Origin: an uncultured Chloroflexia bacterium
GTDB taxonomy: Bacteria > Chloroflexota > Limnocylindria > Limnocylindrales > CSP1-4
Reading direction: 5' to 3'
Length of the DNA: 64,000 nucleotides
NCBI GenBank assembly: GCA_963778805.1
Contig: CAVZVT010000005.1
Span: 293,838 to 357,837, forward strand
Both the position numbers and the translations under genes were made by a program. Every line of letters begins with the position of its first letter. The stretch's first letter is position 1. Positions 1,965 through 34,140 of this stretch are shown in pieces. Below the pieces are notes generated by a model. That model was not told where the DNA came from and did not search any database. It saw only the letters and a list, made by a program, of their open reading frames with translations.

Positions 1965-2276
1965 GTGCTCCTGCGGCTCGTGACCCTCCTCGCGGCGCAG
2001 CTCTTCGACCTCGCTACGTTCGGGGTCATGGTCGGCCGCCACGGGGTCGCCGCGGAGGCCAATCCCACGGTCGGCAACCTGTTCGTCGAGCTGGGCATGC
2101 CCGCCGTCGCGCTCCTCAAGATCCTGCTGATCGTGGCCGTCGGCGCGCTCGCCGTCGCGGCCTGGGCACGCGGCGGTCGGGGAGCGTGGATGCTCGTCGG
2201 GGTGGCGCCGATCGCCATCGCGATCATCGCCGGCGTCTTCGGCGGCTACACGAACGCGGTCGCCTACCTCGGCTGA
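1965..2276 (+). CDS. small hypothetical membrane protein (3 predicted TM helices)
   Basis: A 103-aa ORF from GTG with hydrophobic helices, in the uvrA upstream intergenic region; no recognised domain. Confidence 0.35.
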   Translation: MLLRLVTLLAAQLFDLATFGVMVGRHGVAAEANPTVGNLFVELGMPAVALLKILLIVAVGALAVAAWARGGRGAWMLVGVAPIAIAIIAGVFGGYTNAVAYLG

Positions 2277-2307: not shown

Positions 2308-2319
2308 GAACGGGTGTTC
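2308..2319. promoter_or_regulatory. putative LexA/SOS box (Cheo-type GAAC-N4-GTTC) immediately upstream of uvrA
   Basis: Sequence tacGAACgggtGTTCtat lies 13 nt before the ATG at 2332; the ORF-track start (GTG 2314) sits inside the box, so 2332 is the more likely start. Confidence 0.5.
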
Positions 2320-2331
2320 TATTCGGTCGCG

Positions 2332-5300
2332 ATGCCGTACAATCGGGACGTGCCCCAGGATCAGCTCGTCGTGCGCGGCGCGCGCGAACACAACCTCAAG
2401 AACGTCGATGTCGCGTTCCCGCGCGACCGGCTCGTGGTCATCACGGGCCTCTCGGGTTCGGGCAAGAGCAGCCTCGCCTTCGACACCATCTACGCCGAAG
2501 GCCAGCGTCGCTACGTCGAGAGCCTGAGCGCCTACGCCCGCCAGTTCCTCGGGCAGATGGAAAAGCCGGATGTCGACCAGATCGACGGACTGTCGCCGGC
2601 GATCTCCATCGACCAGAAGGGCGCCTCGCGGAACCCGCGGTCCACCGTCGGGACCGTCACCGAGATCTACGACCACCTGCGGCTGCTGTTCGCCCGGATC
2701 GGGATCCCGCACTGTCCCAACGGCCACGCGATCGAGCGGCAGAGCGTCCAGCAGATCGTGGACCAGGTCCTCGCCCTGCCGGAAGGGACCCGGCTGCTCG
2801 TGCTCGGCCCGCTCATCAAGGACCGCAAGACCGAGGGCGACCGCGTCTTCGATTCCGCGAGGCGGCAGGGCTTCGTCCGTGTCCGCGTCGACGGGGAGAT
2901 GGTCGACATCGCCGATGCGCCCAAGCTCGACAAGTACAAGCGCCATTCGATCGAGGTCGTGGTCGACCGCTACATCGTTCGCCATGCCGAGGCGCCTGAG
3001 GATTCGAAGCGGGCACCGGACGGCCGACCGATCGACCCCGAGACCGGCGAACCGATCCCGGATCCCGATGCCGGCCGGCTCGCGGACTCCGTGGAGACCG
3101 CCCTCCGACTCGGCGAGGGCGTGGTCCTCATCGCCCCCGCGCCGCGCGATGACGAGGCGCCGGCGTTCGAGGAGCAGCAATACAGCGAAAAGTACAGCTG
3201 CCCGTACGACGGGTTCACCGTCGAGGAACTCGAGCCGCGGACGTTCTCCTTCAACTCGCCGCACGGGGCATGCCCGTCGTGCGCCGGTCTCGGGACCCGG
3301 CTGGAGATCGACGAGGATCTCGTGGTCCCGGATCGATCGAAGAGCCTCCAGACCGGGGCGCTGGTGCCGTGGTCACGCCTCGCCACGGACGCATCGTGGC
3401 GGCTGAAGATCATCGAGGCGATCTGTAACGCCCACGGCTGGGATTTCAAGGCGCCGTTCCGCGACCTCCCCGAGGAGGCCGTCGAGTACATGCTCCGGGC
3501 CGCCAAGAGCGAGAAGGTGGTCGTCCGCTATCGCCACGAGCGAGGCGAGAACACGTACAACGCGACGTTCGAGGGCATCATCACCAACCTCGAGCGGCGG
3601 TACAAGGAAACGGACTCCGAGTTCATCAAGAACGAGCTCGAGCGGTACATGGTCAGCCGCCCATGCCCCACCTGCGGTGGCAAGCGGCTCCGCCCGGAGA
3701 TCCTGGCCGTCACGATCGGCGACCAGAACGTCTGGGACGTGTCGACCCTCTCGATCAAGGAGGCGCTTCGCTGGGCGAGCGGGCTCGGCGAGACGCTCAC
3801 CGAGCGGGAACGGACGATCGCGGTCCAGCTCCTCAAGGAGATCGTGGCGCGGCTCGGGTTCCTGGTGGATGTCGGGCTCGACTATCTGACGATGGATCGG
3901 ACGAGCGTGACGTTGTCCGGCGGGGAGGCCCAGCGGATCCGTCTCGCGACGCAGATCGGGACGACGCTGATGGGCGTCCTGTACATCCTCGACGAGCCCT
4001 CGATCGGTCTGCACCAGCGCGACAACGCGAAGCTCATCGCGACGCTCACGCGCCTGCGGGACCTGGGGAACACGGTCCTCGTCGTCGAGCACGATGAGGA
4101 GACCATCCGGACGGCGGACTGGGTCGTCGATATCGGGCCGGGGGCCGGCGAGCACGGTGGCGAGATCATCGCGAACGGGCCACTCGACGCGGTCCTCGCC
4201 GAGCCGCGTTCGATCACCGGGGCATTCCTGCGAGGGGAGCGGGCCGTGCCGATCCCGGCCAGGCGCCGGCATGGCAACGGCAAGGCACTCGTCGTCCGGG
4301 GGGCCCGCGAGCACAACCTCCAGAACGTGGACCTGCGGGTGCCGCTCGGGACGTTCGTCGCGGTGACGGGCGTGTCGGGGAGCGGCAAGAGCACGCTCGT
4401 GACCGAGGTGCTCTATCGAGCGCTGGCGCGAGAGCTCAACGGATCGCGTGAACCCGTGGGCGCGCACGATTCGCTCGACGGGGCGCAGCACATCGACAAG
4501 ATCATCGAGATCGACCAGAGCCCGATCGGCCGAACGCCGCGCTCCAACCCGGCGACCTACGTGGGGCTGTTCACCCCGATCCGCGAGTTGTTCGCGGGTG
4601 TCCCGGAGTCGCGCGTCCGTGGCTACACGCCGGGTCGGTTCAGCTTCAACGTCAAGGGCGGCCGCTGCGAGCACTGCAAGGGCGACGGGATCCTCAAGAT
4701 CGAGATGCAGTTCCTGCCGGACGTCTACGTCCCGTGCGAGGTCTGCAAGGGCAAGCGCTACAACCGCGAGGCGCTCGAGATCCACTACAAGGGCAAGTCG
4801 ATCGCGGACGTGCTCGAGCTGACCATCGCCGAGGCCCTCGAGTTCTTCGCGGCGGTGCCCAACGTGCGCGCCAAGCTCCAGACGCTCAACGACGTGGGGC
4901 TGGGGTACGTCCACCTCGGCCAGCCGGCGACGACCTTGTCCGGCGGCGAGGCCCAGCGGGTCAAGCTCTCGACCGAGCTGTCGCGGCGCGCGACGGGACG
5001 GACGCTGTACGTGCTCGACGAGCCCACGACCGGGCTCCACTTCGCCGACGTCGAGAAGCTGCTCGAAGTGCTCCACCGGCTCGTCGATGGCGGGAATACC
5101 GTCCTGGTCATCGAGCACAACCTCGATGTCATCAAGACGGCCGACTGGATCGTGGACCTCGGACCGGAAGGTGGCGACCGCGGTGGCCGGATCATCGCGG
5201 AGGGCACGCCGGAGACGGTGGCGGCCACCAAGGGGTCGGCCACGGCGGACTATCTCGACCGCGTCTTGCGCGGCGAGCCGCTCGTGCCGTTGTCCGACGT

Positions 5301-5412
5301 GACGTTCGCCGACGAGGCGGGCCGCGGCGTGCACACGAACGGCCACCAAAAGCCGGTCGCCCGGATCACGCCATCTCGCAAACGAGCCGCCGCCACGACC
5401 AAGGCCGGCTGA
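2332..5412 (+). CDS. uvrA: excinuclease ABC subunit A
   Basis: Two ABC ATPase modules with Walker [11 protein letters not shown] / [10 protein letters not shown], signature LSGGEAQR twice, and zinc-finger cysteines (CPYDG…[12 protein letters not shown]…CEVCKG); ~1030 aa. Confidence 0.95.
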
Positions 5413-5479
5413 CGGGGGGTCGGGCCCGGGCCGGCCCGCGGCCGCGGCCGAGCCCGGGTCCTCGGCCCGGCCCGCCGCA

Positions 5480-5822
5480 CCGCCCGTTCGAGTCTCTGGC
5501 GCCCAACCGCCCGTTCGAGTCACCCCACGACCGAACCGACCGCCGATCGCTGACCCGCCGTCGGCCCCGGCCGAGCCCGCCCGAGCCCGCCCCGACCGCC
5601 CGTTCGGTCACCCCACGACTCGAACCGACGCGAGCCGGAACGTCCTCGATCGGCACCCCGGTCCGGCCTGGACCGCCGCCAGCCCGCCCAGCCGCCCGTT
5701 CGGTCACCCCACGACCGAACCGACCAGTCCCGGACGGCCCCGATCTGCCCGCACTCGCCCCGGCCGGACACGCCGCCAAGCCCCGCCGCCCGTTCGGTCA
5801 GCCTCGGCACGACCGAACCGAC
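5480..5822. repeat. array of 4.5 copies of a ~34-bp palindromic repeat (CCGCCCGTTCGGTCACCCCACGACCGAACCGAC; stem GTTCGGTC / GACCGAAC), period 89-96 bp
   Basis: Copies at 5480-5494 (partial), 5507-5540, 5596-5629, 5692-5724 and 5786-5822; copies are imperfect and the 55-62-bp inter-repeat segments are GC-rich and partly similar to each other. Confidence 0.7.
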
Positions 5823-7523: not shown

Positions 7524-7663
7524 GGGCCGGTCGCTAGGCCTTGAAGGCCAGTCGCGGGCCAGAGCGACCCCGAAGGCCGGTCGCTGGCCACAGGGCGACC
7601 CCGAAGGCCGGTCGCTGGCCACAGGGCGACCCCAGAAAGCCACTCGCTGGCCAGCCCGAATCC
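7524..7663. repeat. 31-bp tandem repeat block (4 units, 2 perfect: CCGAAGGCCGGTCGCTGGCCACAGGGCGACC) between convergent gene ends; each unit holds a short inverted repeat
   Basis: Perfect units at 7570-7600 and 7601-7631, degenerate units at 7539-7569 and 7632-7663, and a partial unit at 7524-7538. Confidence 0.7.
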
Positions 7664-9438: not shown

Positions 9439-11179
9439 GTGGTTCCTCCTACGGGTCTGCACCCAGATCGAATCCTGGTGTCGTCGCTGACCCCGCCTCG
9501 GCGGTGCCCCGACATCGTACGTGATGGGCTAGCGTGCGCGCCCGAGCCCGAGCCGAGCCCGAGCCCGAGCTCCGCCGTCGAGAACGCCTCGAGCAGGAAC
9601 GGGGACGGGGTCGCCGGGTCGTAGAGGATCGTCAGCGATCGGCGCGCCCGGGTCCACGCGACGTAGGCCAGTCGGCGCTCCTCTTCGTAGGCTCGCGCGG
9701 GGTCTGCGGCGCCCTCCACGGCCTTGGCGCTCGGGAACCTCGCCGATTCCATCCCGAGGATGATCACGTGGTCGAATTCGAGGCCCTTGGTCGCGTGGGC
9801 GGTCGACAGGGTCAGCGGCGCATCGTCACGTCGAAGCTCCGCGAGTCGCGCTCGAGCCGCCACAACGGCCGCGGTGAACGTGGCGAGGTCGGGGTAGGGA
9901 GGTGCCCACGCAAGCAGGGCCGCCGCGGCAGCGGCTTCTGCCGGATCCGTGGCGTCGCCGCGCAAGCGCCCGAGCGTGACGAGCAACGGCTCCCCGGCGG
10001 CGGCGAGCGCGGCCAGCTCGGCGGCCCGTGCCAGCAGGCCATCCAGATGCGGATCCTCCAGCGGCAGCTCGATCCTGGCGGCACGAAAGGGCAGCCCCTC
10101 GGCCAACGCCACGACCACGGCCGGGATCAGTTCACGGTTCGTCCTGGCCAGGACGGCCCGGGTGGAGTCGTCGGTCGGCCAGGTCCGCATCGCGCGCTCG
10201 AGCCGGACCGGATCGTCGGCCGCATCCGGCGCCAGGGTGAGCGAGCCGGGCGCCTCATCGCGCGCCCGGATCCGCTTCGCGAAGCGTTCCCCGTTGTGCT
10301 CGACCAGTCGGACCGCGCGTTCGACGACCGCCCGCGGACATCGGTAGTTGACCTCCAGGTCGATCCGGCGGAGACCCGGCAATGACGCATCGAGACGCAG
10401 GACCCGTCGGACGTCGGCCAGCCGCCAGCCATAGATCGACTGGTCGTCGTCACCGACCAGCAGGATCCGGTTCGCCGGTGCCGCGAGCAGCAGCGCCAAC
10501 CGAAGTTGCGCGCGATCGACGTCCTGGACTTCGTCCACCAGCAGATGCGCGCACCGATCGCGCCATCGAGCGAGCAGATCCGGCCGGTCCTGGAGCAACC
10601 GCGATCGCGCGAAGGATGAGGTCATCGAAGTCGACGCCACCCGCCTCCTCGACGGCCGCCTGATAGGCCACGAACATCCGCGCGATCGGACCCGGCCTCC
10701 GGATCGGCGGCGACCTGTGCCGCGGTCACACCCAGCTCGACCTTCAGGCGGGAGATCGCCCCGTCGAACTCGAGGCGGGCGGCGTCATCGGCGTCGGGCC
10801 GGATCCGGCGAAGGATGGCGTCCCGGTCCACGAGATCCACGGCGTCGCCCGCGTCGCGCAGGATCTCGAGCCCGAGCGCGTGGAAGGTCCGGACCCGCGC
10901 GGCGCCGGCTTCGATGCCGAGCGGCGCAAGAGCCGCGTCCAGCCGTTCCGCGAGCTCCACGGCCGCCCGTCGATTGAACGTGATCGCCGCGATCGAGTCG
11001 GCCGCCACGCCGCCCGCGCCGCCCGCCACCAGCCACGCGATCCGGGCGACGAGGGTCGTGGTCTTGCCGCTCCCCGCCGGCGCCACGACCAGCACCGGCC
11101 CCGGCTCAGCAGTCGCCGCCGCACGCTGATCCGGCGCAAGGCGCGCGAGCCGCTCGACGACCGACGGGTGAAGGTCCAC
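9384..11179 (-). CDS. UvrD/Rep-family (SF1) DNA helicase, frameshifted copy
   Basis: Walker A VVAPAGSGKTTTL, UvrD motifs (DFDDL, LLVDEVQD, VGDDDQSIYGWR, YRCPRAV, TAHATKGLEFDHVII, YVAWTRAR) spread over at least 3 frames (frameshifts near 10620-10680); the 3' end overlaps the small membrane protein gene so the true stop is uncertain; it contains a (GAGCCC)n tract at 9541-9570. Confidence 0.6.
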
Positions 11180-11203
11180 CGACGCAGCATGCCGACCGCC
11201 ACG

Positions 11204-11270
11204 TACCTGCGGATCACCGCCTACCTGCCGATCACCAAATACCTGCCGATCACCCCGACCGCACTAGACT
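11204..11270. promoter_or_regulatory. three exact-period 18-bp direct repeats (TACCTGC[C/G]GATCACC) followed by a TAGACT -10-like hexamer, in the divergent helicase/uvrC promoter region
   Basis: Repeats at 11204-11218, 11222-11236 and 11240-11254; TAGACT at 11265-11270, 8 nt before the uvrC ATG (near-leaderless). Confidence 0.5.
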
Positions 11271-11278
11271 GGAGATGC

Positions 11279-13129
11279 ATGACCCCGGACCTCGAAGCCA
11301 CGCTCAAACGACTCCCGGATCGGCCGGGCGTCTACCTCATGAAGGACGAGCGCGGCGACGTCGTCTATGTCGGCAAGGCGCAGAGCCTGCGCAGCCGCGT
11401 CCGGTCGTACTGGCAGAAGGCGACGCCCGCCGGCGAGATCCACCGGATCCGCAGCGTCATCGATCGCGTGGCCGAAGTCGAGTACACGATCACCGATTCC
11501 GTCTCCGAGGCACTCCTCCTCGAGGCCAACCTCGTCAAGCGCTACAAGCCGCGGTTCAACGTCCGACTCAAGGACGACAAGAGCTACCCGTACATCAAGA
11601 TCACGCTCGGCGACGACTTCCCCCGCGTCGAACGGACCCGCAAGCTCCCGACCGACGGGAGCCGCTACTTCGGTCCGTACGCGTCGGCGGTGAGCGTCGA
11701 CGAATCGATGAACCTGGTCCGTCGCCTGTTCCCGTTCCGGACCTGCACCATCGATATCAAGGACGGCGAGCGCGCCCTCCAGCGGCCCTGTCTCCTGTAT
11801 CACATCAAGAAGTGCCAGGGCCCCTGCATCGAGGCGATCTCCAAGGACGCGTATCGCGAGGACATCGCGCAGGTGGAGCTCTTCCTCGAGGGTCGGCAGG
11901 AGACCCTGGTCAAGGCCCTCCACCGCGAGATGGCGATCGCCGCCGAACGGGAGGAGTACGAGCGAGCCGCCGGTCTCCGCGACAAGATCCGCGCCATCGA
12001 GCGGACCATGGAGAGCCAGAAGATGGCCGCGTTCGCGAAGCGCGAGCTCGACATGATCGGTCTGGCGCGGCAGGACAACCAGGCGGCCGTCCAGCTCTTC
12101 GCGATCCGCGACGGGAAGATGGTCGGCCGCGACGTGTTCCTCCTCGATGCCGCGCGCGACGCCTCCGACGAGGAGGTCCTCGCGAGCTTCCTCGAGCAGT
12201 ACTACGCCCGGGCCACGTCGATCCCGCGCGAGGTCTATCTCCCGCGCGTCGCCGAGGACGTCGCGGACATCGAGGCATTCCTCGCGGATCGTCGAGGCGG
12301 CCCGGTCCATCTCAAGACGGCGCAACGCGGCGAGAAGCGCGGATTGCTGGAGTTGGCGACCCGCAACGCCACCGAAACGCTCGCGCGCGAGCAGGCCCGC
12401 TGGCTCGTCGACCAGGGCAAGACGCTCGCGGCGCTCGAGGAGCTCGCCGCCGCCCTCGGCCTGCCCGGCCCGCCGTCCCGCATCGAGTGCTACGACATCA
12501 GCAACTTCCAGGGCAGCGAATCGGTCGGGAGCATGGTCGTCTTCGAGGACGGCAAGCCGAGGAGCGGGGAGTACCGGCGGTTCCGCATCAAGACCGTCGA
12601 GGGCCCCAACGACTTCGCGAGTCACCAGGAGGTGCTCCGCCGTCGGTTCCGCACGACCAAGCCCGGACAGGAGGGGAGCGAGGAGGAGCGCCGCTGGGCG
12701 ATGCCGGACCTCGTGATCATCGATGGTGGCAAGGGCCAGGTCAGCGCCGCCAAGGAGGTCCTCGACGAACTCGGTCTTCACGACCTCCCGATGGCCGGTC
12801 TCGCCAAGGAACGCGAGGAGTTGTTCCTGCCCGGTCAGCTGGAGCCGGTCGTCCTGCCCGCCACGTCACCGGCGCTCTACCTCGTCCAGCGCCTCCGCGA
12901 CGAGGCGCATCGGTTCGCCATCACGTACCACCGCGACCTGCGCGCCAAGCGCCAGGTCCGCTCGCAGTTCGACGACCTCCCGGGCGTCGGCCCGAAGCGC
13001 AAGCGCGAGCTGCTCAAGGTCTTCGGCTCGATCAAGCGCGTCCGTGACGCGCCCGTCGAACAGATCGCCGCGGTCCCCGGCATCGGCCGAGCCCTGGCCG
13101 AACGCATCAAGGCCACCCTCGAGGCATAG
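11279..13129 (+). CDS. uvrC: excinuclease ABC subunit C
   Basis: GIY-YIG N-terminus (PGVYLMKDERGDVVYVGKA), UvrBC-interaction region, and a C-terminal RNase H-like domain with HhH. Confidence 0.92.
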   Translation: MTPDLEATLKRLPDRPGVYLMKDERGDVVYVGKAQSLRSRVRSYWQKATPAGEIHRIRSVIDRVAEVEYTITDSVSEALLLEANLVKRYKPRFNVRLKDDKSYPYIKITLGDDFPRVERTRKLPTDGSRYFGPYASAVSVDESMNLVRRLFPFRTCTIDIKDGERALQRPCLLYHIKKCQGPCIEAISKDAYREDIAQVELFLEGRQETLVKALHREMAIAAEREEYERAAGLRDKIRAIERTMESQKMAAFAKRELDMIGLARQDNQAAVQLFAIRDGKMVGRDVFLLDAARDASDEEVLASFLEQYYARATSIPREVYLPRVAEDVADIEAFLADRRGGPVHLKTAQRGEKRGLLELATRNATETLAREQARWLVDQGKTLAALEELAAALGLPGPPSRIECYDISNFQGSESVGSMVVFEDGKPRSGEYRRFRIKTVEGPNDFASHQEVLRRRFRTTKPGQEGSEEERRWAMPDLVIIDGGKGQVSAAKEVLDELGLHDLPMAGLAKEREELFLPGQLEPVVLPATSPALYLVQRLRDEAHRFAITYHRDLRAKRQVRSQFDDLPGVGPKRKRELLKVFGSIKRVRDAPVEQIAAVPGIGRALAERIKATLEA

Positions 13130-28438: not shown

Positions 28439-28525
28439 GCCGAGGTGGCGGAATAGGCAGACGCGCTGGTTTCAGGTACCAGTGGCCGCAAGGTCGTGTG
28501 GGTTCAAGTCCCTCCCTCGGTACCA
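28439..28525 (+). tRNA. tRNA-Leu (anticodon CAG)
   Basis: Cloverleaf with acceptor GCCGAGG/CCTCGGT, anticodon loop TTCAGGT, a long variable arm and an encoded CCA. Confidence 0.85.
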
Positions 28526-28557
28526 CTCTCCCTCCGGACCCGACAAAGGCGACACCT

Positions 28558-28642
28558 GCCCAGGTGGCGGAATTGGTATACGCGTACGTTTGAGGGGCGT
28601 ATGAGGCAACTCATCCGGGTTCAAGTCCCGGCCTGGGCACCA
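28558..28642 (+). tRNA. tRNA-Leu (anticodon GAG)
   Basis: Acceptor GCCCAGG/CCTGGGC, anticodon loop TTGAGGG, a long variable arm and an encoded CCA. Confidence 0.8.
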
Positions 28643-28695
28643 ATCCATCGATCGATCTGACGACCGTCCGACAGGGCGGTCGTCATACTGTCCGT

Positions 28696-28772
<77 letters not shown>

Positions 28773-32207: not shown

Positions 32208-32283
32208 GCCGAGATAGCTCAGTTGGTAGAGCACGCGACTGAAAATCGCGGTGTCGCCAGTTCGAATCTGGCTCTCGGCACCA
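32208..32283 (+). tRNA. tRNA-Phe (anticodon GAA)
   Basis: Acceptor GCCGAGA/TCTCGGC, anticodon loop CTGAAAA, and CCA. Confidence 0.85.
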
Positions 32284-32309
32284 TCACTTCGGTGATCGGG
32301 CACACACGG

Positions 32310-32385
32310 GCGGAAGTGGCTCAGTTGGTAGAGCATCACCTTGCCAAGGTGAGGGTCGCGGGTTCGAGTCCCGTCTTCCGCTCCA
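32310..32385 (+). tRNA. tRNA-Gly (anticodon GCC)
   Basis: Acceptor GCGGAAG/CTTCCGC, anticodon stem TCACC/GGTGA with loop TTGCCAA, and CCA. Confidence 0.85.
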
Positions 32386-32405
32386 TTCCCTTTCCTATGG
32401 ACCGC

Positions 32406-32479
32406 TGCCCCTTCGTCTAGTGGTAGGACAGCGGACTTTGAATCCGTGAACCGAGGTTCGAACCCTCGAGGGGCAGCCA
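32406..32479 (+). tRNA. tRNA-Gln (anticodon TTG)
   Basis: Acceptor TGCCCCT/AGGGGCA, anticodon loop CTTTGAA, and CCA. Confidence 0.75.
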
Positions 32480-32487
32480 ACAACATC

Positions 32488-32564
32488 GGCGACGTGGTGA
32501 AGTGGTTCAACACGGAGGTCTGCAAAACCTCTATTCACCGGTTCGAATCCGGTCGTCGCCTCCA
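32488..32564 (+). tRNA. tRNA-Cys (anticodon GCA)
   Basis: Acceptor GGCGACG/CGTCGCC, anticodon loop CTGCAAA, and CCA. Confidence 0.75.
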
Positions 32565-32583
32565 CCTTCCGAACACAACACGG

Positions 32584-32614
32584 CCCGCTGGGATACCAGC
32601 GGGTCGTTCGTTGT
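32584..32614 (+). terminator. putative intrinsic terminator after the tRNA cluster (8-bp stem CCCGCTGG/CCAGCGGG, then tcgttcgttgt)
   Basis: Perfect hairpin 20 nt after tRNA-Cys; a second hairpin at ~32630-32655 faces the convergent DoxX gene. Confidence 0.45.
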
Positions 32615-32709
32615 GGGCCTCGCATCCACGCCGAACGAGCGGGCCTCGGTAGACCCGCTCGTCTGGATCCGGGTTCGCATCCTGACCCGGAAGGTGGCCT
32701 GGGTGGTTA

Positions 32710-33222
32710 CCCGAGGAGGTAGTGGAGCGCCGGTCGATGACTGACGACTTCGGTCTGCTCGAGCATCGCGTCGACCCCGTAGGACAGCCCGGCCTGGGCG
32801 TAGGCGAGGTACAGGGCGACCGTCACGTACATGACCGTTTCGTTGATCGGCCCGAAGCCGAAGTCCCACGCGGCGAGGGTGATGAGGCCCATCAGGATCG
32901 CGCCCATCACCGCGGAGAACCGCGTGGCGAACCCGATGATCAGCGCCACACCGATCGCCAGCTCACCGGCGACGACCAGGAAGTTCATGACCTCGATCGC
33001 CTGGGCGTTGCCCGCGAGGGCGACCCAGAAGTCGTGGGTCGGATTGACGATGGCCTTGGCAGCCGAGCCGGGCATCGTGCCCGCCGTGCCGAACTGCAGG
33101 AAGCCGGCCGACGTGAATGGCTTGCCCGAGGCGGTGAAGTCGAAGACCTTTTCGAGTCCGGCATACAGGAAGCCGGCGCCAAGGACGATCCGAAGTGCTG
33201 CGAGCCCCTTGTCCTTCTTCAT
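32710..33222 (-). CDS. DoxX family membrane protein
   Basis: A ~170-aa 4-TM protein with the DoxX-like LRIVLGAGFLYAGLEK motif. Confidence 0.7.
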
Positions 33223-33605
33223 GGGACGTTCCTTCCGCTTGAGTTCGGTGCGCCGCCGGGAGAGTGCCGGTGCGGTCGTCGATCTCATCTCGGATGCTGG
33301 CGATCCGAGGGCGTCAGGGACAGGTGCCGAGTGGCCCATTCGAGGCACCACGTGGCCCGGTCCGGATGGGCCGTCCGCGGCCTAGGAACGGGACGGCGGC
33401 CATGGAACGTCAGCGGGCCCGGGGGCGGACCCGCTGACGCCAGGGACGCGAGCCGATCAGCCGTTCGGCCGCGAGTCGAGGACCGTCGAGCGAGAGGACA
33501 TCGCACGCGGGTCTCGCTCTATTGACGCTTCGAGGGACCCGAAACGTTCAATCTGGATCGGCGCACGCCCGGCCTCGCACGCTGGGAGCCGCTACGCTGA
33601 GGCTC

Positions 33606-33691
33606 GCCGGAGTGGCGGAACGGCAGACGCAGCGGACTTAAACTCCGCGGCCCGCAAGGGCGTCCGAGTTCGAATCTCGGCTCCGGCACCA
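33606..33691 (+). tRNA. tRNA-Leu (anticodon TAA)
   Basis: Acceptor GCCGGAG/CTCCGGC, anticodon stem GCGGA/TCCGC with loop CTTAAAC, a long variable arm and CCA. Confidence 0.85.
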
Positions 33692-33717: not shown

Positions 33718-34140
33718 TCAGCCCGTCTTGCGGCGGATCATGAAGCGCCCGGGTTCGGGCAGGGGCGTGAACCCGAAACGGGCGTACAGGCTGTGCGAGT
33801 GCGTCGTTCCAAGCATCCACCGCTGGATGTCCCGGAGATCGGGGTGCTCGATCACGACGGAGACCAGCCACTGGCCGAGGCCCTTCCCGCGGTGGTCGGC
33901 ATCGATGTAGACGTCGCACAGCCACGCGAAGGTCGCCTGGTCAGACACGACGCGCGCCATCCCGACCTGCCGATCGTCGTGGAGGAGACTGAACGTCAGC
34001 GACGCGTCCAGCGAGCGGTCGATGACCTCGGTCGGTCGTTCGGCAGCCCAGTACGAGTCCGCGAGGAACCGGTAGACCGCCTCGTGATCGATGCGGTGGG
34101 GGTCGGTCGTGATCGTGTAGCCGTCGCGCGTCCAGTCCAT
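33718..34140 (-). CDS. GNAT family N-acetyltransferase
   Basis: Acetyl-CoA binding motif …DHRGKGLGQWLV…. Confidence 0.8.
   Translation of the reverse strand: MDWTRDGYTITTDPHRIDHEAVYRFLADSYWAAERPTEVIDRSLDASLTFSLLHDDRQVGMARVVSDQATFAWLCDVYIDADHRGKGLGQWLVSVVIEHPDLRDIQRWMLGTTHSHSLYARFGFTPLPEPGRFMIRRKTG

Follow-up and report, generated by a model that had tools for sequence, protein, structure and literature searches.

Sites of the OmpR/PhoB type repeat at 10–11 or 21–22 bp and iterons at roughly 22 bp, and the sites of OmpR/PhoB, SARP and AraC regulators, like iterons, repeat on one face of the helix. In this study, we examined three direct repeats that invite comparison with such systems. They lie in a 64-kb stretch of DNA (hereafter the window, meaning the whole stretch analyzed) from a metagenome-assembled genome (MAG) of an uncultured soil bacterium, a "Limnocylindrales" member of the Chloroflexota class Limnocylindria, in the divergent intergenic region between a UvrD-like helicase gene on the minus strand and uvrC on the plus strand. 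A preliminary description of this DNA had reported three 18-bp repeats of exact period in a divergent promoter region, and had read them as an array of iteron-like or response-regulator binding sites. The repeats and their placement hold up, as they start at 11204, 11222 and 11240, are recovered by Tandem Repeats Finder and fall within the 99-nt gap between the two genes. The proposed family membership does not. Instead, it is probable, though by no means certain, that an 18-nt stretch of divergent core promoter has recently been expanded in tandem in this genome alone, and that the array is no dedicated multi-site operator.

Like plasmid iterons, the array presents three direct repeats of 15–18 bp at a fixed period. 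It differs from them in its chromosomal housekeeping context, in a period that is not about 22 bp, and in lacking a rep gene, an AT-rich region, DnaA boxes and any similarity to plasmid records. No regulator or replication-initiator (Rep) gene was found nearby (within ~10 kb upstream), and neither an AT-rich region nor DnaA boxes were found in the context of the array, across which GC content is 0.62–0.66. An iteron or the end of a mobile element was also considered and rejected, the sole similarity being a 25-nt chance match to a Neorhizobium replicon, with none to phages. With operators of the OmpR/PhoB, SARP or AraC type the array shares repeats that are direct, non-palindromic and placed just ahead of a -10 hexamer, but operators of this kind are repeated throughout a regulon and retained in orthologous promoters, whereas the window array is unique to one genome. 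Nor is the idea of a phased operator supported, because 18 bp correspond to 1.71 helical turns and set neighbours 257 degrees apart, each on another side of the helix than the one before. The array belongs neither to the iterons nor to the phased response-regulator-site families. The LexA SOS box would be the expected co-regulator motif for uvr genes, but the repeat core differs from it in having no dyad symmetry. Exact GAAC-N4-GTTC matches occur in the window only at 2308 and 32448, the former being a LexA-shaped box (GAACGGGTGTTC, 2308–2319) directly before uvrA (open reading frame (ORF) 2314..5412, probable ATG 2332); none was found in 11180–11278, nor before uvrC or the helicase gene.

By analogy, the nearest counterpart of the array would be a promoter-region variable-number tandem repeat (VNTR) such as that of clbR-clbB. 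In the pks island of E. coli, this VNTR consists of an 8-bp unit present in 2–20 copies in the clbR 5′ untranslated region, and 5 versus 20 copies result in a ~2-fold change in expression (PMC7364221). Compared from sequence alone, the two loci have in common short head-to-tail repeats between divergent genes, a copy number that varies among genomes, and an expected effect that is architectural and modest. The locus studied here differs in its 18-bp unit, its three copies, its non-identical spacers and its position upstream of both -10 hexamers.

A further class of described systems bears on the promoters around the array. Leaderless genes of high-GC bacteria are marked by a TANNNT hexamer ~12 nt ahead of the start codon (Zheng et al. 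2011, PMC3160421). Promoters in Mycobacterium tuberculosis are determined chiefly by the -10 element, without a -35 consensus, and GTG-initiated leaderless mRNAs are common; leaderless calls in that work allow a 5-nt tolerance (Cortes et al. 2013, PMC3898074). The start of uvrC in 78 of 80 Limnocylindria, and that of the helicase gene in close relatives, resemble these promoters and those of Deinococcus deserti (PMC4007540) in having TAnnnT ~12 nt upstream, in accepting GTG, and in showing neither a Shine-Dalgarno sequence nor a recognisable -35 element. Set against this pattern of its own lineage, the window is an outlier, with TAGACT in place of TAGCAT, a gap of 8 nt against 6 nt, and ATG in place of GTG.

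Copy number and origin of the repeats

The window cores share the consensus TACCTGC[G/C]GATCACC and keep an exact 18-nt period. Tandem Repeats Finder reports 2.8 copies of period 18 with 0% indels and a score of 74, and the copies stand head-to-tail, in register and at constant period without intervening unique DNA, as expected of a tandem duplication. The 3-nt spacers that follow copies 1, 2 and 3 are GCC, AAA and CCG, with no position common to all three. A degenerate direct repeat (CCGACCGCCAC and CCGACCGCAC) brackets the array on both sides, and in the repeat search TGCCGACCGCC, immediately left of the array, resembled the end of a repeat unit. At the base composition of the window, a given 15-mer is expected 0.006 times at up to one mismatch on both strands together; because three matches nevertheless stand in exact phase, a chance origin of the array is excluded. 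The only other matches in the window at up to three mismatches, at 33964 and 62708, each lie inside a long ORF and correspond to the chance level (shuffle expectation 1.8).

We compared this region with that of relatives, all of them MAGs, including 80 loci from species-representative Limnocylindria genomes (L085–L164 and others) in which the uvrC start was placed by tblastn. A metagenome scan with full-length UvrC was dominated by generic UvrC peptides and gave four close loci. The nearest relatives are L082, L087, L166 and the pair L083 and L165, which represent the same organism; their UvrC is 90–92% identical to that of the window. At the orthologous site each of these five has one copy, as opposed to three in the window. 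This single copy (TATCTGCCGGTCAAC, TATCGGCCGATCAAC or TATCTGCCGATCAAC, that is, TATCkGCCGrTCAAC) occupies positions -30..-16 and is followed by GCG and then, 3 nt from the copy, by the -10 hexamer. More diverged single copies are present in L084 and L149 (ACGTATCCGCGGAT), in L089, and in L001 and L167, and we found no second copy in any of the 85 uvrC upstream regions of relatives that we examined.

In the alignment (A1), copy 1 of the window stands opposite the single copy of L082, L087 and L083, while copies 2 and 3 together with CCGACCG are gapped in every other sequence, giving a 43-nt insertion made of two units and 7 nt. The right flank, CCGACCGCAC in the window as against GCG in relatives, accounts for the 7 extra nt. 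The window, L083 and L084 all have an ACGT at the left edge of the conserved block, 22 nt away from the helicase start, and this conserved distance indicates that copy 1 holds the ancestral position relative to the helicase gene. Correspondingly, 30 nt separate the two -10 hexamers in the five close relatives (12 + 15 + 3), against 73 nt in the window (12 + 51 + 10), a difference of 43 nt. As judged from the aligned sequences, this comparison shows how the copies originated, with copy 1 ancestral and the others brought in by the 43-nt insertion. Where every relative reads TAT and CAAC, the window reads TAC and CACC in each of its three cores. Two derived substitutions common to all copies imply that the copying postdates the split from all sampled relatives, or that the copies were homogenised later.

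With one copy in relatives and copies 2 and 3 confined to an insertion specific to the window genome, the iteron-like or response-regulator array of the preliminary description is not borne out. That description had also held that the repeats would be a chance local duplication if the motif occurred nowhere else and were absent upstream of orthologous uvrC genes. The first part is what we found as far as we scanned, namely in the window and 655 kb of related loci, in the latter of which matches outside the orthologous site have two mismatches each and are scattered without a consistent position relative to uvrC; the second part fails, since a single conserved copy is present there.

Tandem arrays before uvrC are not confined to this genome. 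Across 706 kb of Limnocylindria loci they number 0.21 per kb overall and 0.82 per kb (10 arrays) in the 150 nt before uvrC, several of the latter falling in the C-terminal coding part of the upstream gene. At the same site, immediately ahead of the uvrC -10 hexamer, non-coding arrays are found in L002 at 2904–2982 (20 nt, four copies, directly before TACGAT), in L113 at 3197–3281 (11 nt, 4.3 copies; 15 nt, 2.2 copies) and in L125 at 203–270 (30 nt, 2.2 copies). As their units are unrelated in sequence to that of the window, repeat formation here is recurrent and sequence-independent, which fits slippage better than a specific binding site.

The extra copies would have arisen via replication slippage or unequal recombination. 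Their main effect would be architectural, in that promoters that formerly overlapped, with their -10 hexamers 30 nt apart, would now be separated by 73 nt. We would expect uvrC still to be transcribed from TAGACT as a leaderless mRNA or one with a 1–2-nt leader, and the extra copies to be neutral or to change expression mildly. The transcription starts predicted for the two genes are 11277–11279 on the plus strand and 11179–11181 on the minus strand. Since copies 2 and 3 have no TAnnnT on either strand (TACCTG and CAGGTA lack the final T), they probably create no new promoter, and we rejected the idea that they do. An RNA element or DNA hairpin was rejected as well, as the fold is no better than that of shuffles (z = +1.16) and there is no Rfam match even at E ≤ 1. 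We count this lack of secondary structure and of an Rfam match, together with that of a plasmid or phage counterpart, in favor of a duplication. The array itself would then join the other short tandem duplications of bacterial promoter regions. Should the extra copies prove functional, nature would have performed here a small experiment in uncoupling overlapping divergent promoters.

Leaderless-type starts and the conserved promoter block

The preliminary description had proposed a TAGACT -10-like hexamer in front of a near-leaderless uvrC, and the comparison supports this, with TAGACT appearing in alignment with a lineage-wide hexamer of 78 of the 80 relatives. The uvrC start codon is GTG in 79 of 80, and the hexamer, of the TA[GC]NAT type, stands 6–7 nt before it: 63 relatives have TAnnnT at -12..-7 (TAGCAT 47, TACGAT 10, TAGGAT 3, TAGAAT 2, TACCAT 1), and in 15 more it is shifted 1 nt further upstream. 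In the window, TAGACT is the sole xAxxxT hexamer on the plus strand of the intergenic region. It is separated from the in-frame ATG at 11279 by 8 nt (GGAGATGC), a gap that falls within the leaderless tolerance of Cortes et al. (2013, PMC3898074), and a short GGAG is found 4 nt before this ATG.

Across Limnocylindria, the uvrC start is near-invariant and consists of TAGCAT or TACGAT, 6–7 nt (CGGGGC-like) and GTG, often with TTGCCC before. This hexamer is far more tightly conserved than a generic TAnnnT would require, and the DNA beyond it is unrelated among the 80 genomes. The near-invariant TAGCAT-N6-GTG start of leaderless type is a more useful by-product of this study than the array itself. 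Elsewhere in the window, TAGATT followed by 6 nt and GTG (1953–1967) precedes a small ORF at 1965..2276, a second leaderless-type start.

On the other side of the intergenic region, relatives have TACCGT, TAGGGT, TACGGT, CAGACT or CAGAGT at the helicase -10 site, 6–7 nt from the start. In the five close relatives, the hexamer is TACCGT, TAGGGT or TACGGT and stands 6–7 nt ahead of a GTG. By this sequence measure, both genes look leaderless in close relatives. One sub-clade has two such promoters back to back, 30 nt apart, sharing a strongly conserved block. This block fills the whole 30 nt between the hexamers, i.e. the -35 and spacer positions of both promoters, and conservation in relatives does not extend to the intergenic DNA closer to the helicase -10. 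Over 23 nt (yCACG, core and GCG), it is identical at 20–22 positions among three relative lineages, whose four-fold degenerate sites in uvrC are only 0.55–0.62 identical (binomial p ~2e-4 to 2e-3), and copy 1 of the window matches relatives at 17–18 of the 23 positions. Judged by this degree of identity, the ancestral single-copy block is under purifying selection. Its conservation is sufficiently explained by its serving two overlapping divergent promoters, although a protein may also be bound there.

Several observations nevertheless weigh against a simple, recent and neutral expansion. The block that was copied is clearly constrained, and hence is functional DNA, not junk. Among the copies, the cores are identical at 44 of 45 positions while all three spacers differ, so that the uniform similarity of a recent neutral duplication is not seen; this contrast, in a post hoc test, has p = 7e-4 if point changes are independent and p = 0.016 if AAA is a single event, and it is the pattern that selection on the cores would produce. 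The array lies exactly in the center of the intergenic region (24 + 51 + 24 nt), with copies 1 and 3 each centered 32 nt from a start codon. Neither the AAA spacer nor the flanking CCGACCGC(C)AC repeat follows from simple 18-nt slippage, and the right-hand 7 extra nt recreate the left flank CCGACCGC(C)AC. Finally, the failure to find the 15-mer elsewhere extends only to the 64-kb window and the 655 kb of related loci. The features that slippage leaves unexplained could stem from a template switch or from repair with filler nucleotides. Taking these points together, we give a functional role of the extra copies a low but real probability.

Alternative readings of the array

The strongest alternative, in our view rather unlikely, is that the array is an operator in which the 15-nt core binds a transcription factor for the helicase gene and uvrC, with copies 1 and 3 serving one promoter each and the middle copy bridging them. 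The conservation of the ancestral block far above the neutral level, the retention of cores but not of spacers, and the equal distance of copies 1 and 3 from their own start codons are all consistent with it, as is the fact that the block in relatives spans the spacer of the uvrC promoter, a part that is usually unconstrained. On the other hand, the window genome is the only one with more than one copy, its cores deviate at two positions that are invariant in relatives, and the motif is found at no second locus in the 64 kb plus 655 kb. The rotational offset between neighbouring sites, the lack of a conserved dyad and the lack of a nearby regulator gene also speak against it, and the conservation of the single copy is also explained by two overlapping promoters that share 30 nt.

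No conserved dyad was found in the core. A palindromic operator was tried and rejected, as the perfect palindrome ATCGGCCGAT is confined to L082 and L087 and is lacking in L083, L166 and the window. The same holds for a methylation switch built on the three GATC sites, as GATC is lost in L083 and L165 (CCGGTC) and in L084. A more specific form of the operator reading, in which the conserved block is the operator of an undescribed regulator in one Limnocylindria sub-clade and was triplicated here, with selection keeping the cores while the spacers drift, we regard as doubtful. If true, it would provide a case from nature in which the amplification of an operator rewires two overlapping promoters of repair genes.

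It is improbable that the array is a contingency-type VNTR, in which slippage would alter copy number within the population and tune uvrC, the helicase gene or both via promoter spacing. Head-to-tail units without indels, a copy number of one in relatives and three in the window, the other arrays before uvrC in L002, L113 and L125, and the precedent of a promoter-region VNTR that changes expression ~2-fold (PMC7364221) would all fit such a locus. However, the difference in copy number was seen against relatives of which the nearest has a UvrC that is 92% identical, and a unit as long as 18 nt, present just three times and with spacers that are not identical, is a poor substrate for slippage. 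Moreover, since the array lies upstream of both -10 hexamers, copy number leaves the -35/-10 spacing of uvrC unaltered.

A coding origin of the repeats, with uvrC starting at the ATG at 11189 and the repeats encoding an N-terminal extension of the form (YLxITx)×3, is very improbable. It can draw on a frame that is open from 10880, on an 18-nt period that is a multiple of three and places each variable spacer in exactly one codon of the uvrC frame, on third positions of the unit that are all G or C, and on the public record (P0001), which is annotated so. The third-position pattern, by our own arithmetic, has a chance of ~0.2 in one of three frames. Most of the best 120 UvrC homologues are 616 aa long, align from residue 1 and so begin at the position of ATG 11279, where 79 of the 80 relatives start as well; in 52 of 80, the TAG of the -10 hexamer forms an in-frame stop four codons upstream. 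The upstream frame is open here only because the gap between hexamer and start is 8 nt rather than 6 nt. Furthermore, ATG 11189 lacks a Shine-Dalgarno sequence, only 10 nt separate it from the helicase start, and its promoter would have to lie within the helicase gene; the 30-aa peptide has no match to Pfam or any family. The extension at 11189..11278 is thus likely to be non-coding, and the 646-aa annotation a start-site error. It would begin 30 codons too early because the in-frame TAG of the relatives' -10 hexamer is lost here: the duplication and the 2-nt change in the gap open the upstream frame, and the public record consequently reads the repeats as 30 extra residues of UvrC. The practical value of this finding is as an annotation warning on the UvrC start.

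That mis-assembly of a long-read MAG, or an error in its consensus, produced the extra copies is hardly credible: many relatives are long-read MAGs judging by contig names, the helicase gene has two frameshifts within 100 nt, and L083 and L165 differ by a helicase indel although they are the same organism, but the spacers and one position of the core vary between copies, which consensus errors do not yield, uvrC, uvrA and secD nearby are intact, and three short units are far below read length.

Features of the locus and neighbouring genes

The features of the locus are given in Table 1. The gene neighborhood comprises uvrA, DUF6941, a META-domain lipoprotein, the helicase gene, uvrC, secD/F and recJ.

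Table 1. Positions of the repeats, candidate promoter elements and genes at the helicase–uvrC locus of the window
Feature	Position	Strand	Remarks
UvrD-like helicase	9579..11179	-	GTG start 11179; frame broken twice, near 10692 and near 10598
Candidate helicase -10 hexamer CATGCT	11186..11191	-	6 nt before GTG 11179
30-codon in-frame extension	11189..11278	+	MPTATYLRITAYLPITKYLPITPTALDWRC; annotated as part of UvrC (P0001, 646 aa)
Left flanking direct repeat	11192..11202	+	CCGACCGCCAC; its CCGCCAC common to relatives
Repeat copy 1	11204..11218	+	TACCTGCGGATCACC; orthologue of the single-copy block of relatives
Repeat copy 2	11222..11236	+	TACCTGCCGATCACC; within the insertion specific to the window genome
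Repeat copy 3	11240..11254	+	TACCTGCCGATCACC; within the insertion specific to the window genome
15-mer forms			window core TACCTGCSGATCACC; ancestral core TATCKGCCGRTCAAC
Right flanking direct repeat	11255..11264	+	CCGACCGCAC; relatives have GCG alone at this site
Candidate uvrC -10 hexamer TAGACT	11265..11270	+	aligned with TAGCAT/TACGAT of relatives
uvrC	11279..13129	+	616 codons; ATG aligned with the GTG start of relatives

The helicase begins with VDLHPSV... and has a Walker A motif, AGSGKT. In a tblastn search, the intact helicase of L001 matches the window in three frames (11209–10691, 10692–10600 and 10595–9579), and the C-terminal part of the window helicase past residue 540 is unmatched by this intact orthologue; Pfam finds UvrD-helicase and UvrD_C on two helicase fragments. 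The gene may be a pseudogene, or else the assembly contains indel errors that would account for its frameshifts. As the frame is interrupted twice, co-regulation of two working repair genes is uncertain here. L083 and L165, with 99.5–99.9% nucleotide identity, differ by a 49-nt helicase indel that breaks the frame in L083 only. The idea of a helicase pseudogene confined to the motif-bearing clade was dropped, as the frame of L165 is intact over residues 1–496.

We also rejected the right half of the core (GCGGATCAyC) as an ancestral helicase start region encoding M-I-R, as called in L001. Against such a start, the conserved (V/M)(D/S)LHPSV codon is where the helicase of most relatives begins, and the DNA upstream of it has stops or offers no start. 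In L001 (3818–5953), the helicase is a 711-aa protein whose C-terminus matches membrane methyltransferase families of the PEMT/ICMT type, an unusual fusion; the domain fused to it there is called as a separate 145-aa gene in L083.

Tandem repeats are also found elsewhere in the window, for which Tandem Repeats Finder gives 20 rows at a score of at least 50. A 31-nt array of 3.6 copies with 89% matches (7543–7653) lies just downstream of the META-domain gene, and its units, each with the inverted repeat GGTCGC...GCGACC, look like a string of REP-like or terminator hairpins. Directly after uvrA, there is a 96-nt tandem array of 3.4 copies (5502–5822, and 5429–5475). Two tRNA gene clusters, of three and five genes, are located at 28439–28769 and 32208–33688.

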